Of a DNA stretch of 64,000 bases, positions 2,418-55,073 are shown piece after piece (the stretch's first letter is position 1; each line of letters begins with the position of its first letter). Below the pieces are notes generated by a model that did not search any database, had not been told where the DNA came from, and saw only the letters and a program-made list of their open reading frames with translations. A program made the position numbers and the translations under genes. This stretch comes from an uncultured Erysipelotrichaceae bacterium. GTDB taxonomy: Bacteria; Bacillota_I; Bacilli_A; RF39; UBA660. The stretch spans positions 208,137 to 272,136 of the forward strand of contig CADBGE010000001.1 in the NCBI GenBank assembly GCA_902794075.1, read 5' to 3'.

Positions 2418-5400
2418 ATGGCCAAAACAGAAGATAAATCAAATAAATTATATGGCACAGGCGTTGGTGAAAATAATATTACTCCAACAACAAATAATTT
2501 AACAAATATTGGTTCAAAAATAACGTCATTAAATCCAGGTGATGAATATGCAATGATTGATGCGTTCAACATTGATTGGGAAAGCGGTGAATATAAATAT
2601 TCAGATGATAGTGATGATATTATTCATTCTACCGGTCATTTTGTTGAAATTGTTAAACAAAAGGCTGCCGAAGGCGGTGCTGATGTATGGGATGATATAA
2701 AAGTAAGTAATTATATAACTTCTCAAATAATTATTTATGCAACAAGTAATGTAAAAACACCACCTGAATGTGATTTTTCTGGTGAACCAATAAACATAAA
2801 TAATTATGATAAACAAGTTTATGCTAACCTTCCTGAAGGGTGGGTAGAATCATTAGACAATGTTGAAAGTAATTATTATGTATTCCAAACATCTGTTTAT
2901 GAGGTAAGAACATTAAATAATGAACGCATAGGTTATCATGAGCCAATTGGTGAAGTGATTTATTTACTTGGAGAAAATGGTATAAATGGCAATTTTAAGA
3001 GTACTGTATTTTGTAGAACAAATGAAACACCTGTTGCACCAAAACAAGGAGCATATTACAATACGGGGCTTCCGAGTGACATAAAAGTATATAGAGATAA
3101 TAATAGTTCACAAGAATCAGAAATATCTAACGCAGAATGGTCAGACGGTATTCCAGAAGGTCAAGAAATTCTTTGGGCATCAACAGCTATAATTTCAGAT
3201 AATAATGGAAGTGAAGATGAGACGGCAGTTTGGACTACTCCAAGACAAATGACTGATACTGCCACATATGACGTTGAATTTTCACCTTACTCTAACTCAA
3301 ATAATACTGCCCCATTGACACTTCCATCAGATAACGATAATGAAAATGGAAATAGACATAATACTTCTCTTTCAAGAAATCAACGTTGGTTTGATTTAAC
3401 ATTAGATAATGAATTACGAAACGGGATAAGTAATGTTGATGAAAATGGACAAATTCCTATATCTGGAGGCAATAAGCCAACTTGGAAATCTATGATTTGG
3501 CGTGCTGAACGTGAGTGTATAAATGGCGTTTGGTCTAATTGGACAATAAGTAGAATTAAAGGTGAGCAAGGAACTGCTGGTATTAAGGGAGATTTTAAAT
3601 CAACTGTATTTAAGCGTTCTGAAAATATGCCTGACCGTCCGTCTGATAATGACGGTACCTATAACAATCCTGTTCCAAGTGGTTGGTCTGATGGTATTCC
3701 TAATGGAATAGGTCCAGTATGGTCAACATGGAGAACATTTAGTGTGAATGACAATAATTCTAGTTGGACAACACCGACACTTGTTGCTGATACTCCAACT
3801 TATGATGTTGAATTTAGTCAATTACAATCAGAATACGGTAATCCAACAGACAACCCAAATAACTGGTTTGATCCCACAAAAGATACATTACCAGAAGACA
3901 TAACATGGGAAGACATGATTTGGCGTGCTGAACGTAATCGAGCAACATCTCAGGATGAATGGTCAGAATGGGTAATCACAAAAATAAAAGGTGAAGATGG
4001 TACAATAGGTTTAAATTCTCCATACTTTGAACAACGTTGGGGTGTATTTGATAAAACAATTACTCCAACAGCACCAGATAATAATGCTATAACATTAAAT
4101 ACAGATCACACTACTTGGAAACTAACTCCACAATATACTCCAGGAAAGAACACATGGATGACTGCTCGTAAAGTTATTTATACTATTAACAATAATGAGC
4201 AGTCTGCTCAATATGATGAAGATTCTACATGGAGTACACCAATGCGTATGTCTGGAGTTGATGGAGTTTCTCAACCAATACAACCCGTACTTAAATATCA
4301 ATGGACAGCTTCTAACATAGTCACACCTCAGTTAGATCAGAATGGAAATACTGAAAATCCTGGAAATGCATGGAAAGAAGCACCAGGAAATCCCACATCA
4401 ACAAATAAATATCTTTGGATGATTCAGGGCCAACGTCAAAATGGTTCAATGATAACTTGGGATGCTAATTCAGATGAAACAGTTGGAACTAATGAATATT
4501 GGACGTCACCTGTTTGCTTAAGTGGAGCCGATGGTCAACCAGGTAAAGATGGAGATGATTTAGAATTCATATATCATGTGTATGATGAAGTGCCTGCATT
4601 CAGCAATGATAACAATAATCCAGCATATTGGGAAGTTAGTTCACAAGATAATTATTTAGGACCAGAAAATAACAAATGGAATAATAATCCAACTGGTGTT
4701 ACTATAACAGATAAATATGAATATTGTTCATATCGTAGAAAAACAGGAAATCCAAAGGCTTGGACAAAATTTAGCATGCCATTTCCTTGGTCTATATATG
4801 GAGAAAACGGTATAGATGGAGACGGAGTCGAATACATATATGCAGTTACTCCAACAGATACAGCACCAACTCAACCAGAAATAACTTCAGACAATTATAC
4901 ATCATCACAACAATCAGAATGGGGCGTTGATGAAAATATTAATGGAGTTATATGGCATGATGATCCACAACAATTAAATAATGAAAACCAAAAATATCAA
5001 TGGGTATCAGTAAGAAAATATAGATATCCAAAACAAAATGAAACGCTTGGTGGTAATGCATTAGATCATAATAAGAAATATTGGTTTAATTATTCAACAC
5101 CGCAACTTTGGAATTGGTATATAAATAACGGTACAAATGCTCCAAGAATTGTGATGGCATATAAACGTACAAGTTCAAACGATATATCATCATTATATTC
5201 TGTTGGAACAACAGATATTCTTTATCCTAATGATGGACATATATGGATAAGCGGTGAGCATAGTTATGATCAAAATTGGTGTGAAAGCCCAGGAAACAAT
5301 ACACAAGATACTGGTGATGAATTTCTATGGATGATTCAAGCATATTATACAAATGTTGAAAATAATGTCCGCGCAAATGGTGGAACATTTAATAAATATA

Positions 5401-8400
5401 CATTAGAAGGATCATGGTCAACACCAATATGTCTAACAGGCGAACCTGGGCATGAAGGTGAAGATGGTTCTGATATAGAATTCATATATTATAGAACTGC
5501 TGATGATAATAAAGTGCCAACAGTTCCTGATTCAGAAAATTTTGAGGACGGACAGTATAATGAATCAGATTGGCCATTTGTCAATCTAAAAAGAACTCAT
5601 GATGAAATAACTAATTCATCAGTTTTTGATTCAACAATAACTAAAGATGGAATAAAATATTTGATTAATGACAATAAATATGATATTCTTGAAGATGAAA
5701 CAATATATAATAGTTATTCTGATAATTTTACACAAATACCATCTGACATGCTTCATGATGTTTGGACTGACAATCCTCTTGGTGTAACATCAACATATGA
5801 TTATGAATATGCAGCAGTTCGTAGAAAACCTGCTGGAAGTAATTCGCAATGGGGTGAATTTTCACCAGTGTTCCTGTGGTCAAAATATGGTGAAGACGGT
5901 GTAGACGGTGATGGAGTTGAGTATATATATTATTTAAGTTCAGATGAAAATGAAGTAACATTTGATGCATTATCAGAAACAAGTAATAATTCATCAAACA
6001 ATCCAGCAAATTGGGAAATTAGTCAAAATCCAGAATATATAGCAAATAATGGATGGACTGATGATCCATCAGGAGTTTCCATAGATAATAGATGGGAATA
6101 CGTATCTGTCCGTCATAAAAGATTTGATGCAGAATCTAATACTACAACATGGGGTAAATATTCTGAACCATCGCTTTGGGCTCATTTTGCAGTAGACGGA
6201 CTTGCAACAAATCTTGTTCTTGAATCAGATAATGACAATATAACTGTTGGTATAACAAGTGAAGGAACTATAAATAATAATTATAGTGATTCAGTTAATT
6301 TTACTCTTGTATTTAATACAAGGCCACTTAATTTAGATACTGACTATACATTAAAAATTTTAACTGAACCAACACCATCTGGTGAAAGTAATTATAATCC
6401 ATTTGGAACAAAAACAGATACTACAATACCGTTTAATAATGATTTATTCCAAGGAAATTTCGCATCTTTAACAAATAACACATTAACAGTCAATATACCT
6501 GAAGGTTTTGACATGAGTCAATATGATTACATTATGTCTATAACTCTTGAGGCAAAAATTATACGAAACGATATTGATGGATTAGAAATAGATACTCCAG
6601 CAATATTTACATTAAAAATATCTGGTGTTGAACTATCAATTAATGACATATATAAGTTAAATATTGATAGACAGGTTATTAAATTAGACCCAAATGATCA
6701 GAAATATGATACTTTAAACATAAGTTTAAAATCGTTAACAAGTGTTAATTCTATAACAGAAAACAGTGAAGCAACAGATAAACATTTATATATAAGATAT
6801 AATATTTCTGAAAGAAACAATATAGATCCTGATGGTAATTTAATAAATGTTAATAATTATTATATACCAATTGGCGATTATACTCCAGATAAACATTATA
6901 ATAAGCATACATTTAGATTATATTATATATTAGATGATAGCTTTTTTGATGAACCTCGTTTTGATTATAAATTAACAGACAATGTATTAAATGCGCATGG
7001 TGCTGTATTATTAGACACTGAAACAATATCTGCTGTATGGGATGGCGCTAATGGTAACCCAGGAACTGATTCTAAATCACAAGAATATATATATTTTGTA
7101 ACAGATGACATATCTTATTTTGAAAGCGGAAATCACGCAAACATAAATCCAAATAATTGGGATACACACGAAAATGTTATCATAAATAATGTATCGTATT
7201 ACGCATATCTTACAGATGATTTTCCGTTTGTCAATGGACAAACTACATATCTTGGATGGGAAGATACTCACATAGGAATTAGTGAAGAACATCCATATCA
7301 GTTCATGTCCACTCGTGAATATAACACAACAACTAAAGAATGGGGTAAGTTTAGTTCTCCAGAATGTTCTCACAATTGGGGACACTCTGGTGAAGATGGA
7401 GATGGAGTTGAATATATCTATTATTTAAATGATTCTGCAACATTTAATGGTGATAAACCACAGACATGGTATAATGATACTAACTATCAAAATTCTGAAT
7501 ATATAAAAACAAATACAAATTGGACTGATAATCCATCAGGTGTTTCAGAAAATAAAAAATATGAATGGATTTCTGTTCGTAAATATAAATATGAATGCCC
7601 ATCAGATATACTATGGAATGCTATATTAAAAGAGGGAATATACAATGTAGACGAATGGCAAAAATTTGAAAATGATTTTAATATAAATAGTTATAATACA
7701 AAACAAGCATTTACATCGAAATATGAAGAAGAGGGCAGTCCAATTTCATTCCAGGATGTAGGAAACGATAATAGTAATATAAAACAATTTTTAGAAGATA
7801 ATCATGCGTTTTCTGATGGAAATCCATTTTGGGAAGCAATAAAATATGTATATAAATTATTTAGAACATATGATGAATTAGAAAATGTATTTAATCATAC
7901 AAAAAATAAAATATGGTCGCAATATTCAGAACCAACTCTTTGGGCAAAATATGGGGGAAAAGGTGCCACTGGAGATACTGGTGGTTCAGGGTTAACTTTT
8001 GATTTTGACAATCCAAGTATTCAGATTGCTGTAAATAGTAATGGAAAGATAAAAGATTATCAAGAAGTTACAACATATTTAAATGTTTATGAAGGCGCTT
8101 CAAAAATTTCTGCAAAAGATATAACATTATCCATAATTTCTAATGGTACTCATGATGCATTTGAACATTCATATAGTGATACTGATAAATATGGATATAC
8201 ATTATTTAACAGTAATAGTAGTAACAATGGAACATCAACATATTATACTTGGAAAATTGGTGATGTAGATATTGATAATATTGGAAATAATAATATTGTA
8301 CAGCTCACAGAAAATTCAAGTATAGAATTTAATATAAGTTATAAAGGCAATGATTATGTAAAGCGCGTTTCATTAGTTCCAATCAAATATGGTGAAGATG

Positions 8401-11400
8401 GGGCAAATGCTGTTGTGTTTGATTTATATTGTCCTACGTCAGTAATTCATTATAATGCAATGGATAACACTCCATCGTTTAACCCAACTACTATATCTGA
8501 CATAAAGGTTAGAAAAATAGAAAATAGTAATGTTGAATATAAAATTACTGAAGGAAATAATGAAAATGAAAATGGATTTTCAATAAGTTATTATATGGAA
8601 TTTCCATTAGCTACTTCTCAAGCAACAGGCGGAAATGCTGGTGAAATTGGAGGAAGTATAGTTAGACCAAAGTCATCACCACAAATGGCAGCAAAAAATA
8701 TTTCTGGCTACATATATAATGAAACATTAGATATTAATGACAAAATAAATAATGCTTTAAACGATGATAAGAACTATGATATTCCTAAAACAGTAAAACT
8801 TTCATTATATCATACAGAAAGCGATACTACAGCATTATGGGATGAAACAGATCTTGAGATTATATATGATGGCATAAATGGTGTTGACGGACGATATGAA
8901 GAATATATTTATTATTGTCCACAAAACTCAAATCAAATAAATTGGACAACAATAAATGATGCTTTGAATCCTACAACATGGGCAGCAAATTCAACAAATA
9001 AAGACAATGAAAAACTTTCCGATGTTGATGATTTCATTAAGTCAGGTCAAGAAGAAAATTGGTATGACCATCCAACAGGCGTTGATGAAACACATGTGTA
9101 TGAATATTTTGCACATCGTACATTCAATAAAACAACCGGTAAATGGAACATTTATGATACGGTAGGAATATGGTCACATTGGGGAAGTGACGGTAAAGAT
9201 GGCGATGGTGTTGAATATATATATGCTGTTGGAAATAATTCAGATTGGAAAACAGCAATAGGGTGGAGCGATGGAGCTATACAAAATGCAGATAGAGACC
9301 CAAGAAGATGGATTTTGTTTAAAGGTGGAAATCAATCAACATTATCTACAATAGCTTGGAACGACAATTATCAAACAACAGAATATCATAGAACAGATTC
9401 AAATTTTTCAACAGTATGGGAAGATGACCCAATTAAAAATTTATCTGAAGGTTATTATCAATTTTGTTCAACAAGAAAATATAAATTATTAACGCAAGAA
9501 TACGTTAATAACATAACTATATCAACATTACAATCAGAATTTGGATTTATATCTATAGAATCAACACAAGAAAAATTAAATACTGTTAAATCAATTTTAT
9601 CGTCATATATTGGACAAAAAATATGGCTCCCATATTCCGAACCAACTATTTGGTCAAGTAATATACCTGGGCAGCCCGGGCAAAAAGGTGCTGATGCAGT
9701 AGTATTAGATTGGACAAATGACCAGATTAATTTAGCTGTTGATGAAAATGGAAAAATATATAATGGTGTTCCACAATATAAATCAACAACATTAAAATTA
9801 TTAAATTCAGGTAATGATTTAACAATAACTGATTTAAACTGTTATGGCGATAATGATTATTTTGAAATTAATCTAACAAACTCAGCCGGAGGAGAAGGTG
9901 ATACAATTGAAGTTAATGATAAAATAAACATATATTCATCTTACTCAGAAAGTGATAAAGATTTTACAATAAATATTTCTATTGCTAGTAATTTTAATGA
10001 AGACATAACAATTCCTGAGAATGGTTTAGAAGTAACATTTACTGTTACATTATCTAATAGTAAAACATTAACAAAGGTACTTAAAATCTGTGGTCAACAT
10101 ATTCCAAGTGACGGTATTAATGGACAAAACGCCGTTACTTATGAATTAGATGTTACACCAAATTCATTATCATATTCATCTTTTTCACCAAATGTAAATG
10201 TTACGATAAATGTATTAAAATATAATGGAACATCTGTAACGAGATTAAGTACATCAGAAGACTTTGGCGCAAATAATATATATTTTACAACATCATTTTA
10301 TGATATAACGTTTGAACATACTGTAGTAGACACATATAATCAATCAAATTCTAAATCAATACCTAAAACATTTAGAGGACGAGATATTTATAATACAGGA
10401 TATGTTGTAATTAAAATGTATTATAAAAATGATGGAACTTATATCCAAATTGATTCAGAAACAATACCTGTGATTTGTGACGGTGAACAAGGTGCTCAAG
10501 GATTTACTGGACCTGTTGTTAGAAACTGTGGAGAATATTCTCACTCAAGAAAATACGGTAATGGCAATTATAATAAATCTAATGCTGGACCACAATATGA
10601 TGAAACTTCAATATTATATAAAGATATTGTATCATATACAAATAGAATAGGTACAAAATTTTATACTCCTTCAACATCAACAACATATATAACAGAAACA
10701 AATAATACATATCTATGTAAAGGAAGTGCATATATTGTTGGAACATATCCTGCTCCACCAAATACTAATTCAATAAATACGGGTTGGACAGTAGCTACTC
10801 AGTTTGATTTCATTGCCACAAAACTTCTATATGCTGACCAAGCGTTGATTAACCAAATATCAACACATGATTTGATTGCTACTAATAAGGATGGTTATCC
10901 TGTTGCAGGTGTAACCAGTGGTTCAAAGATGTACGATAAGAATAACAATGAAATTACATCATATCTTTCAACACTTGGAACAGTAAATTATTCAGAAAAC
11001 GCCGTATCATCTCAGAATGATCCGTCAAATGTTCGTATCTTTGCTGGAGAAATATGGGATGGTAATAATTCATATTCATTAACATATGCGCCATTTAATG
11101 TTCGTCAAGACGGTACGGCATATATGAGTAAAGCTATTATTGAAGGTACTGTTACAGCTAGTAATTTAAAACTTAAAGAAAATGTAAATGCAAATACGCT
11201 CGACCAAAAAGGTTCGTTTACATATTGGGATATATTAAATGGAGACAGATACGTACCGAATCTTAATGAAGGTGAGGTTGGTTTATACTATATATTATCA
11301 ATATATGGAAATAGTAATAGTAATATACATATAAAAACACCATATCCAGGAAATGGTATTCCACGTAATGCATTCTTTAAAAAATCAATAAATGGTAAAT

Positions 11401-11885
11401 CTGTTTTATCTGATGATGCTTATTACATGAGGCCTCCAAAGAATACATTATGTCAATTAGTTGGAATCAATGCAGATAATATAACATATTGGAATATTAT
11501 TGAGACACCATTAGCAGAACAAAAAATACCAGATACAATTCTTGAGCATTATGATTGTACAGATGATGTAATTTTATTTGCATATAACTTAGGAGATTAT
11601 TATACTAAAAATAATAATGGAAATGATGTTAAAATAAGTTATTTATGCACACGAGCAGATGATTATGATGGTTTTCTGCCAATACGTAGAGTTACCTTTG
11701 AAGGCGGAAACGGAACTGATGCGGACGATGTTTGGGTAGAATATACTTTTTTAACATATTTACAAAGTGATTCATCTAAACATACTACTAATGGCGCATA
11801 TGCTAATTTGGGTTTTTTGAGATATGTTAAGGATGAGTATAAGTCTTGGCGACCAGAAGGAGAATCAGTAAATCCAAATTCATAA
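2418..11885 (+). CDS. Giant (3155 aa) repeat-containing virion protein, putative tail fibre / adhesin
   Basis: Single uninterrupted ORF. About 10 iterations of W(S/T)xP...G(E/A)DG.DG.GVEYIY(Y/A): short collagen-like Gly-X-Y runs followed by an EYIY strand, e.g. YGENGIDGDGVEYIYAV, YGEDGVDGDGVEYIYYL, GADGQPGKDGDDLEFIYHV. The C-terminal region resembles fibre tips. Confidence 0.8.
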   Translation: MAKTEDKSNKLYGTGVGENNITPTTNNLTNIGSKITSLNPGDEYAMIDAFNIDWESGEYKYSDDSDDIIHSTGHFVEIVKQKAAEGGADVWDDIKVSNYITSQIIIYATSNVKTPPECDFSGEPININNYDKQVYANLPEGWVESLDNVESNYYVFQTSVYEVRTLNNERIGYHEPIGEVIYLLGENGINGNFKSTVFCRTNETPVAPKQGAYYNTGLPSDIKVYRDNNSSQESEISNAEWSDGIPEGQEILWASTAIISDNNGSEDETAVWTTPRQMTDTATYDVEFSPYSNSNNTAPLTLPSDNDNENGNRHNTSLSRNQRWFDLTLDNELRNGISNVDENGQIPISGGNKPTWKSMIWRAERECINGVWSNWTISRIKGEQGTAGIKGDFKSTVFKRSENMPDRPSDNDGTYNNPVPSGWSDGIPNGIGPVWSTWRTFSVNDNNSSWTTPTLVADTPTYDVEFSQLQSEYGNPTDNPNNWFDPTKDTLPEDITWEDMIWRAERNRATSQDEWSEWVITKIKGEDGTIGLNSPYFEQRWGVFDKTITPTAPDNNAITLNTDHTTWKLTPQYTPGKNTWMTARKVIYTINNNEQSAQYDEDSTWSTPMRMSGVDGVSQPIQPVLKYQWTASNIVTPQLDQNGNTENPGNAWKEAPGNPTSTNKYLWMIQGQRQNGSMITWDANSDETVGTNEYWTSPVCLSGADGQPGKDGDDLEFIYHVYDEVPAFSNDNNNPAYWEVSSQDNYLGPENNKWNNNPTGVTITDKYEYCSYRRKTGNPKAWTKFSMPFPWSIYGENGIDGDGVEYIYAVTPTDTAPTQPEITSDNYTSSQQSEWGVDENINGVIWHDDPQQLNNENQKYQWVSVRKYRYPKQNETLGGNALDHNKKYWFNYSTPQLWNWYINNGTNAPRIVMAYKRTSSNDISSLYSVGTTDILYPNDGHIWISGEHSYDQNWCESPGNNTQDTGDEFLWMIQAYYTNVENNVRANGGTFNKYTLEGSWSTPICLTGEPGHEGEDGSDIEFIYYRTADDNKVPTVPDSENFEDGQYNESDWPFVNLKRTHDEITNSSVFDSTITKDGIKYLINDNKYDILEDETIYNSYSDNFTQIPSDMLHDVWTDNPLGVTSTYDYEYAAVRRKPAGSNSQWGEFSPVFLWSKYGEDGVDGDGVEYIYYLSSDENEVTFDALSETSNNSSNNPANWEISQNPEYIANNGWTDDPSGVSIDNRWEYVSVRHKRFDAESNTTTWGKYSEPSLWAHFAVDGLATNLVLESDNDNITVGITSEGTINNNYSDSVNFTLVFNTRPLNLDTDYTLKILTEPTPSGESNYNPFGTKTDTTIPFNNDLFQGNFASLTNNTLTVNIPEGFDMSQYDYIMSITLEAKIIRNDIDGLEIDTPAIFTLKISGVELSINDIYKLNIDRQVIKLDPNDQKYDTLNISLKSLTSVNSITENSEATDKHLYIRYNISERNNIDPDGNLINVNNYYIPIGDYTPDKHYNKHTFRLYYILDDSFFDEPRFDYKLTDNVLNAHGAVLLDTETISAVWDGANGNPGTDSKSQEYIYFVTDDISYFESGNHANINPNNWDTHENVIINNVSYYAYLTDDFPFVNGQTTYLGWEDTHIGISEEHPYQFMSTREYNTTTKEWGKFSSPECSHNWGHSGEDGDGVEYIYYLNDSATFNGDKPQTWYNDTNYQNSEYIKTNTNWTDNPSGVSENKKYEWISVRKYKYECPSDILWNAILKEGIYNVDEWQKFENDFNINSYNTKQAFTSKYEEEGSPISFQDVGNDNSNIKQFLEDNHAFSDGNPFWEAIKYVYKLFRTYDELENVFNHTKNKIWSQYSEPTLWAKYGGKGATGDTGGSGLTFDFDNPSIQIAVNSNGKIKDYQEVTTYLNVYEGASKISAKDITLSIISNGTHDAFEHSYSDTDKYGYTLFNSNSSNNGTSTYYTWKIGDVDIDNIGNNNIVQLTENSSIEFNISYKGNDYVKRVSLVPIKYGEDGANAVVFDLYCPTSVIHYNAMDNTPSFNPTTISDIKVRKIENSNVEYKITEGNNENENGFSISYYMEFPLATSQATGGNAGEIGGSIVRPKSSPQMAAKNISGYIYNETLDINDKINNALNDDKNYDIPKTVKLSLYHTESDTTALWDETDLEIIYDGINGVDGRYEEYIYYCPQNSNQINWTTINDALNPTTWAANSTNKDNEKLSDVDDFIKSGQEENWYDHPTGVDETHVYEYFAHRTFNKTTGKWNIYDTVGIWSHWGSDGKDGDGVEYIYAVGNNSDWKTAIGWSDGAIQNADRDPRRWILFKGGNQSTLSTIAWNDNYQTTEYHRTDSNFSTVWEDDPIKNLSEGYYQFCSTRKYKLLTQEYVNNITISTLQSEFGFISIESTQEKLNTVKSILSSYIGQKIWLPYSEPTIWSSNIPGQPGQKGADAVVLDWTNDQINLAVDENGKIYNGVPQYKSTTLKLLNSGNDLTITDLNCYGDNDYFEINLTNSAGGEGDTIEVNDKINIYSSYSESDKDFTINISIASNFNEDITIPENGLEVTFTVTLSNSKTLTKVLKICGQHIPSDGINGQNAVTYELDVTPNSLSYSSFSPNVNVTINVLKYNGTSVTRLSTSEDFGANNIYFTTSFYDITFEHTVVDTYNQSNSKSIPKTFRGRDIYNTGYVVIKMYYKNDGTYIQIDSETIPVICDGEQGAQGFTGPVVRNCGEYSHSRKYGNGNYNKSNAGPQYDETSILYKDIVSYTNRIGTKFYTPSTSTTYITETNNTYLCKGSAYIVGTYPAPPNTNSINTGWTVATQFDFIATKLLYADQALINQISTHDLIATNKDGYPVAGVTSGSKMYDKNNNEITSYLSTLGTVNYSENAVSSQNDPSNVRIFAGEIWDGNNSYSLTYAPFNVRQDGTAYMSKAIIEGTVTASNLKLKENVNANTLDQKGSFTYWDILNGDRYVPNLNEGEVGLYYILSIYGNSNSNIHIKTPYPGNGIPRNAFFKKSINGKSVLSDDAYYMRPPKNTLCQLVGINADNITYWNIIETPLAEQKIPDTILEHYDCTDDVILFAYNLGDYYTKNNNGNDVKISYLCTRADDYDGFLPIRRVTFEGGNGTDADDVWVEYTFLTYLQSDSSKHTTNGAYANLGFLRYVKDEYKSWRPEGESVNPNS

Positions 11886-12509: not shown

Positions 12510-13166
12510 TTATATGTTAATGAAATGCGATTCGTTAATGTTTTCTTTTTCATGATCATCTTCATAAATTTCTTCTTCAGGATTATCTTCATCAATGATT
12601 TTTTCAACATCACCTTCTATTGGTACATTAGTTTCTTCATCTTCTTTATCAACTTCTTCTATAATAACATCGGTTGTTTTATCATCCTTAAGATATGATG
12701 AATTTTTTGAATTATCTTCAAGATAGTTTGCGATCATTGCTGTCATGGCAAGCGCGACAATCGGGAGAACGGCTCCCACTATGTATGTGACTAATACTGT
12801 AGTGACATTATCAGGCAAATCAGTCCAAACAAAGATAGGCTCTTTAAAATATTGAAGATCCCCCACATTGTGCTGCATTAGATACTTATATGAACTAAAA
12901 ACATTACCAATTATTTGAACTAAAGTCAATAAAGTCATTAAAGCCCATGGCATAAATCTACTTCTATCTTTACTTGATGTTAGAATAGCAAATAGCACAG
13001 CAGCCTGTCCAATTTCAAATGCAGTACCAAGCATAATGCTCATACCAGTATTGTTTGCTAATCCAAAAAAACTAAAACTATGTATTAACGATACTAACGC
13101 AACAACTGCATATAGTATCGCAAATAATGTTATATATATGTTTCGTTTTGTAAAAAATTTTTTCAT
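12510..13166 (-). CDS. Integral membrane protein with highly acidic C-terminal tail
   Basis: About 4 hydrophobic helices (LFAILYAVVALVSLI, AAVLFAILTS, LMTLLTLVQIIG, VLPIVALAMTAMIA). The C-terminal 50 aa are D/E-rich. Confidence 0.65.
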   Translation of the reverse strand: MKKFFTKRNIYITLFAILYAVVALVSLIHSFSFFGLANNTGMSIMLGTAFEIGQAAVLFAILTSSKDRSRFMPWALMTLLTLVQIIGNVFSSYKYLMQHNVGDLQYFKEPIFVWTDLPDNVTTVLVTYIVGAVLPIVALAMTAMIANYLEDNSKNSSYLKDDKTTDVIIEEVDKEDEETNVPIEGDVEKIIDEDNPEEEIYEDDHEKENINESHFINI

Positions 13167-13216
13167 TTTAATTTTCTTTAACTTTCCTTAATCTTTTTTA
13201 ATTATTTTTTAACATT

Positions 13217-13309
13217 AACTATGTATCTTAGAACATCCCAGACTATATCCAGATCATCATCCAATGACTTTTTATAATCATTTTAATAAATTATATAGTT
13301 GCTATTTTT
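13217..13309. repeat. 93-bp intergenic element, copy A (second copy at 45160-45252)
   Basis: Aligned by eye with 45160-45252: 89/93 identical. Three of the four differences are C/T at the same position of an iterated TC(C/T)A submotif spaced about 11-12 bp apart. Lies between a gene stop (13324) and the next gene start (13166) on the minus strand. Confidence 0.8.
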
Positions 13310-13323
13310 TAATTCATTAGAAG

Positions 13324-13773
13324 TCATTTAATGAACATTTTTCTTATGTCATCAGGTATTTTTGGCGATCCTTTAAATATATTATTTGTCATACATCCTT
13401 TAGAAAGTTTCCATTTCATAATCCCATCAAGATCCTCAAGTTCAGGACATAAAGAAAACATATTGACCATGTTAAAAATATTTGAAATATCCCATGTATC
13501 AAGTCCAATTATTTGTTCAAGATTTGGACAATTACAGAACATATATTTTGTTTCTGTAAACATAGATGTGTTCCATCCTGTTACATTTATAATTTTAGAT
13601 TCATTTGTTAAGAATTGAAAATCCATTTCTTCAAAGGATCTGTCATTTTCAAAATATATGTCACTTAAATCTAAAATACCATTTTCTGTTGTTCTTTCTT
13701 TAACTATTTTTTGAAATTCAATTTTATTCTTTACACATGTAACACTTTTATAATCTTTATTTATCTTAATCAT
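13324..13773 (-). CDS. DUF285 / BspA-like repeat protein (149 aa)
   Basis: Contains the W-D-(V/I)-S-N...MF..C..(L/F)-x repeat signature (GWNTSMF...MFCNCPNLEQ...LDTWDISNIFNMVNMFSLCPELE), typical of DUF285 surface-protein repeats. Confidence 0.6.
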   Translation of the reverse strand: MIKINKDYKSVTCVKNKIEFQKIVKERTTENGILDLSDIYFENDRSFEEMDFQFLTNESKIINVTGWNTSMFTETKYMFCNCPNLEQIIGLDTWDISNIFNMVNMFSLCPELEDLDGIMKWKLSKGCMTNNIFKGSPKIPDDIRKMFIK

Positions 13774-15790: not shown

Positions 15791-15895
15791 ATGTTATATA
15801 TATAGTTATTTATTATATTATCTTATTATTTACAATTTGACAGTACAAAAATATAACATTTTTTCGACATATTAAAATTTTTTTATGATTTTTTC

Positions 15896-15926
15896 TTGTT
15901 AAATTTTGTTAAATTTTTGTTAAAGA
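15896..15926. promoter_or_regulatory. Divergent promoter region with three tandem TTGTTAAA(TTTT) units
   Basis: CTTGTTAAATTTTGTTAAATTTTTGTTAAAG lies between divergent genes (sigma-like minus at 15790; plus gene starting 15942/15999). TTTG-containing iterated motif. Confidence 0.4.
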
Positions 15927-15998
15927 AAATGTCATACTGTTTTGAATTTAATGTGCCCGAAATTATATTTTATATATATAAAAATATTATGTAATTTT

Positions 15999-22840: not shown

Positions 22841-23785
22841 TTATTTTTTCTCAAGTTCTTTAATTCTTTCCTCTAATTCAGTAATCTTATTTATTAATTT
22901 ACTAACAACTAATGACAAAGAAGAATTATAATCAACAGATTTAACATTATGTATTTCTCCAGAATTATCGGAAGATGTAGTCACAAGTTCAGGATGCATT
23001 TTTTCTAAGTCTTGAGCAACAAATCCATACATATGAGAACCATTCATATTGAACTCATACATATTTATTTCGTCAATGTTCGCAATCTTTTCAATATCCG
23101 TTTTTAATCTTTCATCAGAATTCTCCATGAATTTTGGAGCAACAATCTGACCAGAAGTGCTGTTGGCTTCTAAAGATATTTTATTATTTGGACCAATTCT
23201 AACATAAGTATATGATACACTACTGCTGACATTAAAGTGTAATCCATCAACATTAGTATAATCATTTATAGATATACCTGATCTTGACAAAATTGCTTCA
23301 GGGTATGTTTGTATAAATCCTTGTGAACCACCAATTGTAATAGATCCTTTGTTCCATCCTATGGAAGAATTAGTTATATGTAATCCATCTATATTTCCTG
23401 AATATTGACTCCAATGAATTTCTTGGTCAGTATCGACTTTATTTGAACCGCTCTTTGAAACATAATTAGATATTTGAGAAGAAGTTGATTCAACAGCATC
23501 AAGGCGAGAATTAAGAACAGCCAATCCAATTGCTGTTGTCTGTTCATTCTCAATCATCTTTGTGTATATAACTTTATTCTGAACAGGATTAGTTGAAGTA
23601 TTGTTTAGTGTATCGTCAACTTTAACATGTCCATATGCTGTAGTTGATGCATGAATATTATGATCATTCCATGCTTTTGTAAGAGATTTAGTTGTGCCAT
23701 TATCATTAATTTGAACTAATCCTGCATAAGTAATTGGAAGCAATATGTCACTACCATTTTGTAATTTAATTGGATATGTTGCCAT
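22841..23785 (-). CDS. Tail fibre with C-terminal intramolecular chaperone (peptidase S74-like) domain
   Basis: N-terminal IKL.NG..LLPIT anchor motif shared with the other fibres. C-terminus ...SDERLKTDIEKI....MYGFVAQDLEKMHPELV... matches the endosialidase-type self-cleaving chaperone domain. Confidence 0.75.
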   Translation of the reverse strand: MATYPIKLQNGSDILLPITYAGLVQINDNGTTKSLTKAWNDHNIHASTTAYGHVKVDDTLNNTSTNPVQNKVIYTKMIENEQTTAIGLAVLNSRLDAVESTSSQISNYVSKSGSNKVDTDQEIHWSQYSGNIDGLHITNSSIGWNKGSITIGGSQGFIQTYPEAILSRSGISINDYTNVDGLHFNVSSSVSYTYVRIGPNNKISLEANSTSGQIVAPKFMENSDERLKTDIEKIANIDEINMYEFNMNGSHMYGFVAQDLEKMHPELVTTSSDNSGEIHNVKSVDYNSSLSLVVSKLINKITELEERIKELEKK

Positions 23786-23837: not shown

Positions 23838-23931
23838 ATATTTTCCTAAAATGATTTCGTGTATCTATAATAGACGATATATTTTCCTAAAATGATTTCG
23901 TGTATCTATAATAGACGATATATTCTTAAAA
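23838..23931. repeat. 41-bp direct tandem repeat (2.3 copies) in an intergenic region
   Basis: ATATTTTCCTAAAATGATTTCGTGTATCTATAATAGACGAT at 23838-23878 and 23879-23919, plus a partial third copy. Lies upstream of the fibre gene start at 23785 (minus). Confidence 0.85.
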
Positions 23932-26362: not shown

Positions 26363-26468
26363 TTATACATATAAAAATTTTTGATATATTTAAAAATAAA
26401 ATATTCATAAAAAAATCCCTATCGTAAGATAAGGATATTATATATTTCATTATAATTGTGTTAATGAC

Positions 26469-27242: not shown

Positions 27243-27260
27243 AAATTACGTTTCGTTAAA

Positions 27261-27274
27261 TATAATTAAAAATA
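27261..27274 (-). promoter_or_regulatory. Recurrent promoter-like motif (minus-strand reading ...TTTTTAATTATA...)
   Basis: One of at least 6 near-identical ATTTTTAATTATAT(A) motifs 25-50 nt upstream of minus-strand ATGs (also near 29178, 33817, 39341, 45529, 50595). Confidence 0.4.
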
Positions 27275-27288
27275 TTAATCAATTATAT

Positions 27289-27326
27289 AAAAAATCCTCC
27301 AAACGCGCGCGTTTGGAGGATTTTTG
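27289..27326. terminator. Bidirectional rho-independent terminator
   Basis: AAAAAATCCTCCAAACGCGC|GCGTTTGGAGGATTTTT, a perfect GC-rich palindrome with A and T tracts. Downstream of fibre gene 27349-29148. Confidence 0.8.
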
Positions 27327-27348
27327 TAAATTATATTTAATATAATTT

Positions 27349-32563: not shown

Positions 32564-32601
32564 ATTTTTTTGTAATATATATTATGTATTTTAGTTTTTT
32601 A

Positions 32602-44710: not shown

Positions 44711-44914
44711 TTAATCAATTATCATATTCATTTCATAACATTCACGAATGAACACAAACATATCAAGATTAGTGTTTAGACCACTGCAATTCAATTTTCC
44801 TGGAGAAGATATAAGTTTCCAACCTTCTTGACCAAGTTTGTTCAATTCTTCGCATATGCCCATTGATGACAAGCCATCAAAGCATCGCATAAGATATTCA
44901 TATTTAGTTTTCAT
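44711..44914 (-). CDS. Hypothetical small protein (67 aa)
   Basis: ATG ORF. Overlaps the next ORF by 11 nt. Confidence 0.4.
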   Translation of the reverse strand: MKTKYEYLMRCFDGLSSMGICEELNKLGQEGWKLISSPGKLNCSGLNTNLDMFVFIRECYEMNMIID

Positions 44915-45122
44915 AAAGTCTCATTAAATCTATTTCTATAACCTCAGGTTCCATTTCCCAAGTCATCTTTGAGTGAGATATCATATTGTCTATATTCTTC
45001 TGTACAATTGAATTTACATAAGGTCTTGTTGATACCCATGTCCCAGAATTCATGCATCGTGTTGGCTCAACCGTATGAAGAGATACTTTTCTATTCTTAT
45101 TAACTCCGATAAATATCTGCAT
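44904..45122 (-). CDS. Hypothetical small protein (72 aa)
   Basis: ATG ORF whose start lies 38 bp downstream of repeat copy B. Confidence 0.45.
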   Translation of the reverse strand: MQIFIGVNKNRKVSLHTVEPTRCMNSGTWVSTRPYVNSIVQKNIDNMISHSKMTWEMEPEVIEIDLMRLYEN

Positions 45123-45159
45123 ATTATTTTTTATAAAAAATGTTAAAAATATTAAAGTG

Positions 45160-45252
45160 AACTATGTATCTTAGAACATCCTAGACTATATCTAGATCAT
45201 CATCTAATGACTTTTTATAATCATTTTAATAAATTATATAGTTGCCATTTTT
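45160..45252. repeat. 93-bp intergenic element, copy B (copy A at 13217-13309)
   Basis: See copy A. The flanking sequences are unrelated, so this is a discrete element. Confidence 0.8.
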
Positions 45253-45279
45253 AGAGGCTGTCTAAGATGATATATGAAC

Positions 45280-45510
45280 TTATTCTTTAACGCAATCACC
45301 ATATACATATACTACGTTTGATAATGCAATTTGAGTGATTTCATATTCATCAATTAGTTCATCATCCATTGCCTTTATTACCTTTGCTTGTACATCAGCT
45401 GGGTCAACAGCATCAACAAGATGAGTTTCTTTTACTTTCTTTACTTTCCCATTTGAATCTTCTTGTGTGAACGATATGGTTGCTGTGTAAAATTTATTAA
45501 TTGGTTGCAT
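45280..45510 (-). CDS. Hypothetical small protein (76 aa)
   Basis: ATG ORF with the promoter-like motif 45529-45544 upstream. Confidence 0.5.
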   Translation of the reverse strand: MQPINKFYTATISFTQEDSNGKVKKVKETHLVDAVDPADVQAKVIKAMDDELIDEYEITQIALSNVVYVYGDCVKE

Positions 45511-45528
45511 AAGTCATAATCTTATTTT

Positions 45529-45544
45529 TATATAATTAAAAATA
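45529..45544 (-). promoter_or_regulatory. Promoter-like ATTTTTAATTATATA motif upstream of start at 45510
   Basis: Motif family as above. Immediately downstream (in transcript direction) of the dnaJ terminator. Confidence 0.4.
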
Positions 45545-45548
45545 AAAA

Positions 45549-45572
45549 AAGATCTACATAAAGTAGATCTTC
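45549..45572 (-). terminator. Rho-independent terminator of dnaJ
   Basis: AAGATCTAC-ATAAA-GTAGATCTT hairpin. On the minus strand it is followed by TTTTTTTATTTTT. Abuts the dnaJ stop at 45577. Confidence 0.7.
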
Positions 45573-45576
45573 ATTT

Positions 45577-46712: not shown

Positions 46713-47258
46713 TCAATCGTTATACAATATAATGATTTTAAATTTTTCTATATTGTCAACATCAAACTTTCCTCTCTTAAAAAGTGATCTTCCTATTATA
46801 TACATCAGCACATCATCATCTTTTATACGAATAAGCTGTACGTTGTTCTTTGATGCTCGAGAATTTGATTGAAACAACAATTCAGATAAATCTTCTTCAT
46901 TTGCAATAGTAATAATTTCTTTCAACATTTTATTCTTCCCATAATTGTCAGGGCGATACTTATGATACCATAATAATTTGATATGATCATATTCATTAAT
47001 GTTATTTATTATTTCATCAGCAAAATTAAGTAATCTATTGGTAACACCTCCATCTTTATCTGTGACCCATAGCCAGGTATATTGGATTGCATCTTTTGAA
47101 ACTTTCGCATCAATATTTTGCGGATCACACCATATTTTCTTTGCAAGTTCCAATAATTGACTTGCCGTATCTATGTAATCTTTGTTGATAATTAATTTTT
47201 CATCAAATCGTTTATTGATGATAAGACGTTCTTCTATATGCTGAGACAATGATTTCAT
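46713..47258 (-). CDS. Hypothetical protein with CTS-like N-terminus (MKSLSQHIEE)
   Basis: 181 aa. The N-terminus carries the family signature followed by the (E)KLIINK(D/N)(Y/F) second motif shared with 47255, 50630 and 54273. Confidence 0.6.
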   Translation of the reverse strand: MKSLSQHIEERLIINKRFDEKLIINKDYIDTASQLLELAKKIWCDPQNIDAKVSKDAIQYTWLWVTDKDGGVTNRLLNFADEIINNINEYDHIKLLWYHKYRPDNYGKNKMLKEIITIANEEDLSELLFQSNSRASKNNVQLIRIKDDDVLMYIIGRSLFKRGKFDVDNIEKFKIIILYND

Positions 47259-47950
47259 TTTTCTAGTACATCAAATATTTCTTTAGTATATTTATACATT
47301 TTTTCACATTCTTCATATATATCAAATATTTCTCTTAATGACTTTGGATGAACTGCTTTACCATTTGGTGTTTTTAACTTATTTTCACGAATGAATTTTC
47401 GTGCTTCCTTTGATGAATTGAACAGCATACCGTTAAACGTGGTATAAAAGCCATGTGCTGTTTTTCCTAAATTATTTATTCTTGATGATGTATCTATAAA
47501 ATTCCATTTTGCATAAAAACCGAACAAGTTATCAAGAAGATAATCGCCAAGTTTATCTTTTAATCTATATAAACCCCATATCCAATTGTCCATACCATAT
47601 CTGCTGTCATACGGTGAATCATTTAGATTTGTTTTGTTTTCTTTTTTAATGAATAAATGCGGTTCTCCATCAACATCATATACCTTATAAATGAACTTAT
47701 AAATCATTTTATTCTCTTCATAATATTGGTTCATTATATCTGCAACTGATGTAGATATTTTAGTTGTGTCTTTTAATGAATCTATATCAAATTCTTTAAA
47801 ATCTTTATTAACTATTAACTTTTCAGCAATATTTACATTTTGATGTAAAGCTTTGCTTTCAGCAATATTTACATTTTGATGTAAAGCTTTGCTTTCAGCA
47901 ATATATTTTTCAACAATATTTTCATTAATATATTTGACTAATGATTTCAT
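47255..47950 (-). CDS. Hypothetical protein with CTS-like N-terminus (MKSLVKYINE) and internal 12-aa duplication
   Basis: 231 aa. AESKALHQNVNI is repeated twice, encoded by a 36-bp DNA tandem repeat at 47822-47893. ATGA overlap with the downstream gene. Confidence 0.6.
   Translation of the reverse strand: MKSLVKYINENIVEKYIAESKALHQNVNIAESKALHQNVNIAEKLIVNKDFKEFDIDSLKDTTKISTSVADIMNQYYEENKMIYKFIYKVYDVDGEPHLFIKKENKTNLNDSPYDSRYGMDNWIWGLYRLKDKLGDYLLDNLFGFYAKWNFIDTSSRINNLGKTAHGFYTTFNGMLFNSSKEARKFIRENKLKTPNGKAVHPKSLREIFDIYEECEKMYKYTKEIFDVLEK
47822..47905. repeat. 36-bp in-frame tandem duplication (2.3 copies) inside CDS 47255-47950
   Basis: TTCAGCAATATTTACATTTTGATGTAAAGCTTTGCT occurs twice, plus a partial third copy. 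Confidence 0.8.
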
Positions 47951-48497: not shown

Positions 48498-48570
48498 TTG
48501 CTTTATAAAATATTATATATAAAAATCAAAAATCAAGCTTTTTCATTTTAATGAAAATAAAAATCAAAAA

Positions 48571-48603
48571 ATAGTGAGTGGGCTCAATTGCCACACCCAC
48601 TAT
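48571..48603 (-). terminator. Terminator downstream of the Hsp70 gene
   Basis: ATAGTGAGTGGGC-TCAATTG-CCACACCCACTAT imperfect hairpin. On the minus strand it is followed by TTTTTTGATTTTTATTTT. Confidence 0.55.
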
Positions 48604-48631
48604 TTCATTAGTCATAATCTTATATAGTGTA

Positions 48632-53925: not shown

Positions 53926-54276
53926 TTATGATTCTAATTTTTCCAATGCGTCAGGCCCTTCATATTCATAATCACCCCATAAATCATTTTCATCAACCCA
54001 ATTCAAAAAATTAATTAATGGAATAATGTCATCTTTTATATTATTTCTATTTATGACTGGCCAATTATTTGTATCATCAAGAACATCATATAGATCGTTC
54101 ATTTGTTGTTTTTCTTCATCAGATAATACATTCCAATATTCAGAATACTTTTTTATTTCAGAATCTTCACCAATATTTCCTGTTAATAGACCGACCAAGG
54201 ATGCTATAGCGTCTCTTTCACTTTCTGTTAGTTTAAAATATCTTGTTTCATTTATATAAGTTATTAATGATTTCAT
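53926..54276 (-). CDS. Hypothetical acidic protein with CTS-like N-terminus (MKSLITYINE)
   Basis: 116 aa. Last gene of a 3-gene overlapping MKSL array. Confidence 0.6.
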   Translation of the reverse strand: MKSLITYINETRYFKLTESERDAIASLVGLLTGNIGEDSEIKKYSEYWNVLSDEEKQQMNDLYDVLDDTNNWPVINRNNIKDDIIPLINFLNWVDENDLWGDYEYEGPDALEKLES

Positions 54277-55073
54277 TCTACTCCTTTTGGTTTATATTTA
54301 TTTACTATATTGCAATTACTGAACATTTTGTCCGTTTTTGCTGTATCTTTAATTTTCCATTTACTTAAGTTACAATTAAAATTTTCGCACCATCCAAACA
54401 TCCAAGAAAAATTCTCTCCTTTACTAACATTCCATTTACTTAAATCATAATTAAATTTTGAACAACCATAAAACATTGAATCAAAGTTTGTTGAATTACT
54501 TACATCCCATTTACTTAAATCTGAATTGAAATTTGGGCAGTTAAAGAACATTTTTTTAAAAGTCTGGCCGTTTCTAACATTCCATTTTCTTAAATCGCCA
54601 TTAAATTTTATACAGTCTTCAAACATCCAATAAAAAAATTCTCCATTACTTACATCCCATTCGCTTAAGTTTTGATTAAATTTTTTACATTCATAAAACA
54701 TTGCTCCAAAATTCTCTCCATTGCGAACATCCCAATTGCTTAAGTCGCAATTGAATTTTTTACACCCATAAAACATATAATAAAAATCCTTACCATTACT
54801 TACATCCCATTTACTAATATCAAAATCTTTATTTCCGGTATTTTTATCTTGTAGAAACAATTTGCTAAAATCAGTTATTTCGGATACGTCTATATCATTT
54901 AAGTCATATATGCCTTTATTATAATGTTCACGTATTGCTAATTCTAATTCATTTCTGTCTTTTGGGTGATAATTATAAATGTCACTATAATTTTTATTAA
55001 TGACAAGTTTTTCATCTACTTGTGATGGAATAATGATAAGTTTTTCAGATATGTAATTTATTAATGACTTCAT
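54273..55073 (-). CDS. DUF285 / BspA-like repeat protein with CTS-like N-terminus (MKSLINYISE)
   Basis: About 7 tandem 23-aa repeats SKWDVSNG..F..MF..C.KFN.DL. The N-terminus has the family motif plus EKLVINKNY. Confidence 0.7.
   Translation of the reverse strand: MKSLINYISEKLIIIPSQVDEKLVINKNYSDIYNYHPKDRNELELAIREHYNKGIYDLNDIDVSEITDFSKLFLQDKNTGNKDFDISKWDVSNGKDFYYMFYGCKKFNCDLSNWDVRNGENFGAMFYECKKFNQNLSEWDVSNGEFFYWMFEDCIKFNGDLRKWNVRNGQTFKKMFFNCPNFNSDLSKWDVSNSTNFDSMFYGCSKFNYDLSKWNVSKGENFSWMFGWCENFNCNLSKWKIKDTAKTDKMFSNCNIVNKYKPKGVE

Follow-up and report, generated by a model that had tools for sequence, protein, structure and literature searches.

A twice-occurring intergenic cassette of a ~400-kb megaphage with a promoter-like core and helically phased palindromic repeats

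The lambdoid OR/OL operators and the mycobacteriophage stoperators consist of repeated, partly palindromic sites of 13 to 17 bp located around promoters, and both serve temperate immunity through an identified repressor. The parC region of plasmid R1 contains five plus five phased 11-bp repeats around its promoter, to which ParR dimers bind cooperatively and which act as an operator (PMC2241845). In T4-type phages, a PeSL is composed of a stem-loop upstream of a sigma-70-like -35/N17/-10 promoter, with a Shine-Dalgarno sequence and a start codon at the 3' end; such cassettes occur in large numbers and cluster in hyperplastic regions (PMC4122927). The element described here is a 93-bp intergenic sequence that occurs twice, as copies A and B, in a 64,000-nucleotide stretch of DNA (contig CADBGE010000001.1 of assembly GCA_902794075.1, positions 208,137 to 272,136), which is referred to below as the window. 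The window belongs to a phage genome of ~400 kb (ENA ERZ27280413, contig k141_844548), for which two assemblies were found; they are 400,026 and 399,786 bp long and begin at different points. With middling confidence, and judging from sequence features, we interpret the element as a cis-acting DNA regulatory cassette of this megaphage, i.e., a promoter/operator-like, putative protein-binding array. Its layout recalls parC and its occurrence as a repeated cassette recalls the PeSLs.

Two near-identical copies at two conserved loci

The original prediction, which was made from the letters of the window, described two copies that are identical at 89 of 93 positions and lie in unrelated flanks, and pairwise comparison of the two regions confirmed the copies, their positions, their identity, and their flanks (Table 1). 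The similarity is slightly longer than 93 bp, extending over 13209-13309 versus 45152-45252 (101 nt, 93%). Both copies are located between codirectional minus-strand genes. Copy A lies 14 nt past the stop of the gene at 13324-13773 and 50 nt ahead of the start of the gene at 12510-13166, and copy B lies 27 nt past the stop of the gene at 45280-45510 and 37 nt ahead of the start of the gene at 44904-45122. A degenerate 52-nt core of the element matched copies A and B only, and no match was obtained in 100 dinucleotide-preserving shuffles. No degenerate further copy was detected with an nhmmer profile in the window plus 10 kb on each side (~84 kb of the ~400-kb genome), and near-matches to the first box of the element (box 1) were at about chance level, with 15 observed and 8.4 +/- 3.1 expected. 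The A-type sequence was found exactly in three other assemblies and the B-type sequence in five, all from different samples. Since both types were reproduced base for base in independent assemblies, the four differences between the copies are real alleles and not sequencing errors. The short-read contigs L003, L005, L006, L010, and L022 terminate at or inside the element, as expected of a repeat.

Relatives were found through homologues of the sigma-like protein and DnaJ of the phage (ENA/Logan protein index), and all of them are metagenomic contigs. Both syntenic loci contained the signature ATAATTT(T)AT-N22-T[A/G]GA on their transcribed strand in all lineages with protein identities as low as 66-72%. 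Elsewhere in the examined sequence the signature was absent, and ~0.1 matches are expected per shuffled window. The check for more copies and for relatives that had been proposed along with the original prediction thus returned no third copy in the ~84 kb and an element that is conserved in relatives at two syntenic loci. The spacing of 22 nt was invariant, and the sequence of the spacer was variable. The repeat sequence was lineage specific, T(A/G)GAT in the window clade versus TAGAG(G) in the 83-86% lineages, and the phasing of 10 to 12 bp was retained. Between strains the element was 95-97% identical, compared with 85-94% for the adjacent genes, 68-87% for third codon positions, and 66-77% for the abutting noncoding DNA.

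The lineage is known only from ENA/Logan metagenome assemblies and is absent from INPHARED, IMG/VR, the JGI metagenomes, and the GTDB genomes. Four exact or degenerate patterns, including a family-level box1-gap-box2 pattern, gave zero matches in IMG/VR, the JGI metagenomes, and the GTDB genomes, and protein searches of IMG/VR returned no relatives. Against the INPHARED phages, the element query gave AT-rich chance matches only, a 2-kb DNA query gave no match, and the sigma-like protein had no relative. The DnaK protein was nearest to those of the Lak megaphages and other huge phages in INPHARED, at ~50-53% identity.

Anatomy of the element and history of its copies

On the transcribed (minus) strand, each copy is composed of box 1, a spacer of exactly 22 nt, and four repeats of the form T(C)T-R-(R)(G)AT, which start at element positions 46, 57, 68, and 78 and are therefore spaced by 11, 11, and 10 bp. 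The fourth repeat is the conserved right end TTCTAAGAT. The core of box 1 was invariant in 9/9 family members, and the exact box sequence occurs in the window in copies A and B only. The repeat unit is palindromic and of the TCTAGA type (ATCTAGAT in copy B). The tetranucleotide CTAG is about twofold underrepresented in the window (33 observed versus 65 expected), yet it is clustered in the elements. The original prediction had proposed an array of sites about one helical turn apart, and this was supported, as the phasing is kept in L023 and L026 with differing repeat sequences. Its count of three submotifs at ~11-12 bp was right as to phasing and is revised here to four repeats at 11, 11, and 10 bp.

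In most copies, box 1 is bracketed by an imperfect inverted repeat. The left arm lies outside the 93 bp, after or overlapping the stop of the upstream gene, and the right arm is formed by the spacer and repeats 1 and 2. The arm sequences vary by lineage with their complementarity kept, and the distance between the arms ranges from 26 to 54 nt across copies. In L009, the equivalent arms are 19 nt long and 84% complementary. The clearest view of this dyad architecture is given by the homologue in L030, in which a 27-nt inverted repeat surrounds an TATATAATTTA box and each arm contains two ATCTAGA sites 10 bp apart (2+2). The window-type element also has a 14-nt terminal inverted repeat, 79% complementary, which is not conserved in L023. 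For a MITE-like (miniature inverted-repeat transposable element) origin, no target-site duplication was visible, and the family is found at the same two loci in all lineages.

All four differences between copies A and B are of a single type, CCA<->CTA on the plus strand, which corresponds to TGG<->TAG on the transcribed strand. Read in transcribed-strand order, the four positions are TAG, TGG, TGG, and TGG in copy A and TGG, TAG, TAG, and TAG in copy B. The fourth difference (13303/45246) has the opposite direction to the other three and is located outside the repeat array. On the plus strand, the three array sites are CCCAGA/CCTAGA, TCCAGA/TCTAGA, and TCCAAT/TCTAAT and thus not strictly TCCAGA/TCTAGA. 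The earlier description, in which three of the four mismatches fall in a TCCAGA/TCTAGA submotif, is replaced by one in which all four are the same TAG<->TGG change. The chance of four transitions all falling at T[A/G]G-type positions is between ~5e-6 (same strand) and 7e-5 (either strand). Changes of the TAG<->TGG type made up at most ~2.6% of 1122 interstrain substitutions, CCA was not depleted in the genome (observed/expected 1.12), and CTA was not enriched. A general CCA-to-CTA mutational hotspot was ruled out by that low share and by the undepleted CCA. A diversity-generating retroelement pair was also considered and rejected: three of the differences are A-to-G but one is the reverse, G-to-A, both copies are intergenic, and of ~40 adenines only those of TAG are affected.

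The first repeat is TAGA in every lineage except copy A of the window, indicating that the G states of copy A are derived and that TAG is ancestral. Locus A of L022 is intermediate, in that the third site alone is G and the second has turned into TAA. Taken with the derived G states, this intermediate indicates stepwise loss of the palindrome core at a single locus rather than compensatory covariation. The suggestion of compensatory or covarying changes in the original prediction was abandoned on these grounds, namely, the derived states of copy A, the mixed states of L022, and the position of the fourth difference outside the array.

Copies A and B are 96% identical in the window genome and 59% identical in the L024/L028 genome, and orthologous copies across lineages are 57-65% identical. 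Locus A of L022 is nearer to copy B of the window (97%) than to copy A (95%). These identities indicate that the near-identity of copies A and B is a homogenization confined to the window lineage. The two loci would be old paralogous sites present throughout the clade, and one copy would have overwritten the other through gene conversion or copy replacement of ~93-101 bp. This event may be dated to the interval between the separation from the 83-86% lineages and the divergence of the 92% strains. Following homogenization, successive A-to-G changes would have removed the central TAG from three sites of copy A; these changes break the palindromes and probably weaken or retune binding at locus A. 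At element position 44, a C-to-T change is common to L022 (locus A) and L009 (locus B), which would fit continued exchange between the loci if the two contigs come from one lineage. The pair of copies would illustrate cleanly how dispersed regulatory sites can undergo gene conversion and then diverge at specific positions.

Table 1. Coordinates of the two copies, their parts and neighboring genes, and the family members found in relatives
Feature	Position	Strand	Details
Copy A, 93-bp element	13217..13309	-	Similarity to copy B reaches 13209; exact same sequence in L011-L013
Copy B, 93-bp element	45160..45252	-	Similarity to copy A reaches 45152; exact same sequence in L001, L002, L004, L007, L008
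Box 1, copy A	13281..13297	-	TATATAATTTATTAAAA; core ATAATTTAT(Y)A(R)AA, AT-rich, -10 promoter-like
Box 1, copy B	45224..45240	-	Same box as copy A
Array, copy A	13225..13264	-	TTGGAT, CTGGAT, CTGGGAT, CTAAGAT; first repeat exactly 22 nt after ATAATTTAT
Array, copy B	45168..45207	-	TTAGAT, CTAGAT, CTAGGAT, CTAAGAT; holds 8-bp palindrome ATCTAGAT and 2/33 CTAGs of the window
Left arm, copy A	13316..13334	-	Overlaps stop of 13324-13773; right arm 13257-13275; 19 nt, 79% complementary, 40 nt between
Weak left arm, copy B	45265..45272	-	TATCATCT pairs with AGATGATG at 45198-45205, 8 bp
Variable positions, copy A	13239..13303	-	13239, 13250, 13262 = G; 13303 = A; all T[A/G]G
Variable positions, copy B	45182, 45193, 45205, 45246	-	45182, 45193, 45205 = A; 45246 = G; counterparts of 13239/13250/13262/13303
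Gene upstream of copy A	13324..13773	-	DUF285, 149 aa; present in window and L022
Gene downstream of copy A	12510..13166	-	218-aa predicted membrane protein, acidic tail; strong intrinsic terminator 12451-12484
Gene upstream of copy B	45280..45510	-	DUF4494, 76 aa; intrinsic terminator 45548-45572 precedes gene
Genes downstream of copy B	44711..45122	-	Two overlapping open reading frames, 72 aa and 67 aa, no family match; last of leftward block
Element in L022	Locus A		92% protein identity to window; window-type element, mixed TAG/TGG states
Element in L009	Locus B		Diverged strain (92-94% identity in the adjacent DnaJ/DUF4494 DNA); window-type element with TAG states as in copy B
Element in L023	Locus A		83%; box and right end kept; repeats TAGAG(G)
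Elements in L026, L027	Locus B		86%, 81%; box kept; repeats TAGAG(G) / TAGATG
Elements in L024 and L028 (one contig)	Loci A and B		72%, 66%; core signature kept; L024 single repeat
Homologue in L030 (439 kb; ERZ27280724, k141_1429952)	3969-4150, different locus	-	49%; end of helicase/MazG/Pyr_excise block; diverged homologue, family-profile E ~5e-5

Proposed function and rival explanations

A DNA site for a dimeric protein is favored by the palindromic hexamers at one-turn phasing, the dyad, the invariant spacing with its variable spacer, and the retained CTAG. The TATATAAT core resembles the ATTTTTA(A/T)TATATA box that recurs before most genes of the window, and strong terminators end the transcription units past the downstream genes. 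This likeness and the position of the terminators make a promoter/operator role the most economical reading. The AT-rich promoter-like core (TATATAATTTAT...) is flanked by a dyad of short TCTAGA-type palindromic sites, and in the window lineage the four sites after the core, at 10- to 12-bp spacing, all face one side of the helix. A dimeric sequence-specific DNA-binding protein would bind cooperatively along the array and at its inverted copy upstream of the box, and its binding would regulate transcription initiated at the box or reading through it. The predicted targets are the terminal gene(s) of two leftward blocks, i.e., the membrane protein at locus A and the two small proteins at locus B. 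The promoter-plus-leader unit offered as an alternative in the original prediction is compatible with this explanation.

Several observations weigh against a promoter/operator role. No DNA-binding domain was detected by Pfam in the ten proteins flanking both copies. In neither copy was a sigma-70-type -35/-10 pair detected on the transcribed strand, only a TATAAT-like core, and by eye the box is a poor match to the Bacteroidota consensus, TAnnTTTG. The distance from the box to the next ATG is 112-125 nt versus 5-40 nt for other putative promoters of the window. In L030, the element is followed by an intrinsic terminator (~25 nt) and by no gene, which does not fit the simple role of a promoter of the next gene. 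Finally, the inverted repeat could function at the RNA level and not in the DNA. A farther-reaching version of the DNA-binding explanation is that a megaphage-specific docking system, either a centromere-like or genome-organizing complex or a dedicated repressor, would recognize TCTAGA palindromes spaced by one turn and that the stepwise TAG-to-TGG changes of all three sites at one locus, following homogenization, would be an adaptive retuning that uncouples one target operon from the other; we regard this version as quite unlikely.

The box that the core of the element resembles is probably the main promoter class of the phage. In most gaps (e.g., 26363-26468, 27243-27348, 32564-32601, 45511-45576, and 48498-48631), a terminator made of a GC-rich hairpin and a T-run is followed by an ATTTTTA(A/T)TATATA box that lies 5-40 nt ahead of the start codon. 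The class does not match the Bacteroidota consensus, TTTG/TAnnTTTG. Three tandem TTTAACAA(A)A repeats were observed at 15791-15950, in the divergent region between the sigma-like gene and a 191-aa gene. A TTAACA-N-TTTT motif recurs just 5' of several start codons, including that downstream of copy B. No Shine-Dalgarno site was found in the AT-rich DNA between box 1 and the ATG. A box-1-like sequence in L031, a 54% relative, was considered as an ancestral promoter box and rejected, because its neighbors are not homologous to the genes downstream of copy B.

The genes beside the element differ among relatives. The pair of 72-aa and 67-aa genes is also present in L026, L027, and L028. In L023, the DUF285 gene is absent from this place and the element directly follows the orthologue of a 171-aa gene. 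L024 has an extra 144-aa gene downstream, and in L009 the downstream flank is unrelated from element position 92 on. In L026, a tandem duplication of ~37 bp (TTATTTTTCTTAAACA(G/C)ATTTTAA...) is located at 8412-8491, in the spacer that separates the element from the 72-aa gene. No terminator was found between the upstream gene and the element at either copy.

An RNA-level role of the bracketing hairpin is the main rival, although an unlikely one. Because the left arm lies past the upstream stop and the right arm is formed by the spacer and repeats 1 and 2, transcripts reading through would contain a long imperfect hairpin. This hairpin may be a processing or stability site of the RNase III type or a leader or 3' untranslated region whose UAG/UGG repeats are bound by an RNA-binding protein; in L030, it may be part of a terminated small RNA. 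The bracketing stem was present in the minimum-free-energy fold of 7/9 copies and was significant in three of the nine, copy B of L028 (z = -5.3), copy B of L009 (z = -4.0), and copy A of L023 (z = -2.8). For copy A of the window, z was -1.9. An RNA element is also consistent with arms that vary by lineage yet remain complementary, with the lack of a terminator between the upstream gene and the element, with the ~125-nt RNA that would result from box to terminator in L030, and with A-to-G changes that would be tolerable as G.U pairs. However, the stem was weak or absent in five copies, i.e., copy B of the window, L022 (A), L024 (A), L026 (B), and L027 (B) (z of -0.2 to -1.3). The mismatches in the arms were three G.U versus three A.C and thus showed no excess of G.U, a balance that favors neither RNA nor DNA. 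The variable sites are also inconsistently paired, as element position 48 faces A in copy A and T in copy B.

Within the 93 bp, no conserved RNA structure was found. Rfam gave no match over the window at gathering thresholds, and permissive scans of both copies gave a chance microRNA match only (E = 0.45). Folds of the 93 nt were not significant (single-copy z of -0.5 to -1.4), and the family consensus fold was -0.58 kcal/mol with a covariation term of 0.02. The small noncoding RNA considered in the original prediction finds no support in the Rfam results, the folds, or the covariation. An invariant box, exact spacing, and helically phased palindromic hexamers are features typical of sites at which proteins recognize DNA, which counts against an RNA element as well.

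The element could alternatively be a recombination cassette, similar to a PeSL, that serves as a portable patch of homology for gene shuffling and has a regulatory role only secondarily. The homogenization of A and B in the window lineage agrees with this, as do the shifts in gene content beside the element (the DUF285 gene in L023, the 144-aa gene in L024, and the flank in L009) and the five short-read contigs that break at it; the PeSLs provide a precedent (PMC4122927). However, throughout the lineages of 66% to 100% identity the element stays at the same two loci, only two copies are present in ~84 kb, and its anatomy is unlike that of PeSLs. Its conservation above that of coding DNA and its invariant spacing point to a sequence-specific function and not to mere homology. 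We consider a recombination cassette improbable. The recombination site suggested in the original prediction holds insofar as the copies are homogenized and gene gains and losses abut the element; it fails on free mobility, given the same two loci clade-wide.

Similarly improbable is a nontranscriptional DNA site, centromere-like, at a replication origin, or involved in genome organization, where a protein would bind the phased palindromes beside an easily melted AT-rich core. Iteron origins likewise have phased repeats near an AT-rich core. The phased repeats and the dyad around such a core also resemble parC (PMC2241845). The L030 copy has no downstream gene, and copy B lies ~560 bp from a 1244-aa helicase-like gene, both of which would suit such a site. 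Against it, the GC skew tracks gene orientation and has no inflection at either copy, so that a replication origin assigned by GC skew was rejected for lack of signal. No ParM-, ParR-, or TubZ-like or initiator genes were recognized by Pfam beside the copies (ten neighbors), at least two copies are present per genome, and at each of the three independent loci the element is asymmetric and oriented in the direction of transcription.

Already disfavored, and very improbable, is a functionless duplicate or small gene, with the differences being an artifact of methylation-driven deamination at CCA (all four are C<->T at CCA/CTA on one strand, and a gene for a C5 DNA methylase is found immediately beyond the window) or synonymous changes (CAG-to-TAG and, twice, TCC-to-TCT) in an 18-codon plus-strand open reading frame, ATG TAT CTT AGA ACA TCC CAG..., with TAG as glutamine: CCA is undepleted, CTA is not enriched, and such changes are at most 2.6% of the interstrain substitutions; conservation of the element far exceeds that of neutral sites; and TAG is an ordinary stop (5/70 genes), with no open reading frame common to both copies or kept in relatives. 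Recoding of TAG (code 15) was ruled out for this 18-codon frame, as long open reading frames are intact under the standard code and the frame is not conserved.

The phage genome and comparison with known systems

The phage genome has a GC content of 30%, is read with the standard genetic code (TAG is the stop codon of 5 of 70 genes), and encodes DnaK, DnaJ, RtcB, and a sigma-70-like factor. Tandem repeats were observed at three places in the window. A perfect 41-bp tandem duplication (ATATTTTCCTAAAATGATTTCGTGTATCTATAATAGACGAT, twice) is located at 23838-23919, in the gap upstream of the minus-strand gene at 22841-23785 and just before an ATTTTTATATATAA box. A perfect, in-frame 36-bp tandem duplication at 47821-47892 lies inside the minus-strand gene at 47255-47950 (231 aa). 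The same gene has 219 aa in the 400-kb assembly (L001, 7597-8256), indicating that this duplication is polymorphic between assemblies. Degenerate tandem repeats of ~75 bp, in five or more copies with 67-72% identity, are present at 54357-54826, inside the minus-strand gene at 54273-55073. The protein of 3155 aa encoded at 2418-11885 contains dispersed repeats encoding G-x-DG-x-DG-x-GVEYIY, and neither a PHROG nor a Pfam match is recorded for it. The 3155-aa protein is probably a tail fiber or another large virion protein, and a Peptidase_S74 protein is encoded nearby. A C5 cytosine DNA methylase gene is located just past the low-coordinate end of the window (L018, 19142-20279), and in L031 an EcoRI_methylase-like gene adjoins DnaJ.

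Gene regulation in uncultivated megaphages (400 kb or more) is almost uncharted, and the element offers a concrete cis-regulatory signature that sequence comparison can reveal, consisting of an invariant box, a fixed 22-nt spacer, phased TCTAGA-type palindromes, and two defined target operons. The natural TCTAGA and TCTGGA alleles are ready-made variants for binding and reporter assays.

The PeSLs and PmSLs are alike to the element in being repeated, conserved intergenic cassettes of a large phage in which a promoter-like box and an inverted repeat occur together, with gene gain and loss nearby and recombination between copies. In contrast to a PeSL, the dyad of the element brackets the box instead of preceding a promoter, no -35/-10 pair was detected, a phased array follows the box, and the next ATG is 112-125 nt away. 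In copy number, the element is at two fixed loci in the ~84 kb searched, and indels adjoin it. With the lambdoid operators and the stoperators it shares multiple short, partly palindromic sites near promoters and sequence differences from site to site, which in those systems tune affinity. The unit of the element differs, however, with 6 to 8 bp at one-turn spacing.

The likeness to parC is one of architecture only: short repeats, helically phased at ~11 bp, lie on either side of a promoter-like core. The L030 homologue, with 2+2 palindromes at 10-bp spacing around the box, is the nearest in layout. In contrast, there is no sequence relationship to parC, the sites number 4 (+1) or 2+2 and not 5+5, they are palindromic hexamers and not direct 11-bp iterons, and at least two copies are present per genome. 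No ParR- or ParM-like domains were found by Pfam in the ten flanking proteins. The element is thus similar to parC in architecture and not a member of that family, and it belongs to neither the parC nor the PeSL family. It is a lineage-restricted element of a familiar kind, and more structured than was first described. The concept is familiar from the operators of plasmids and phages, and the value of the element lies in an entry point to megaphage regulation and not in a new principle.

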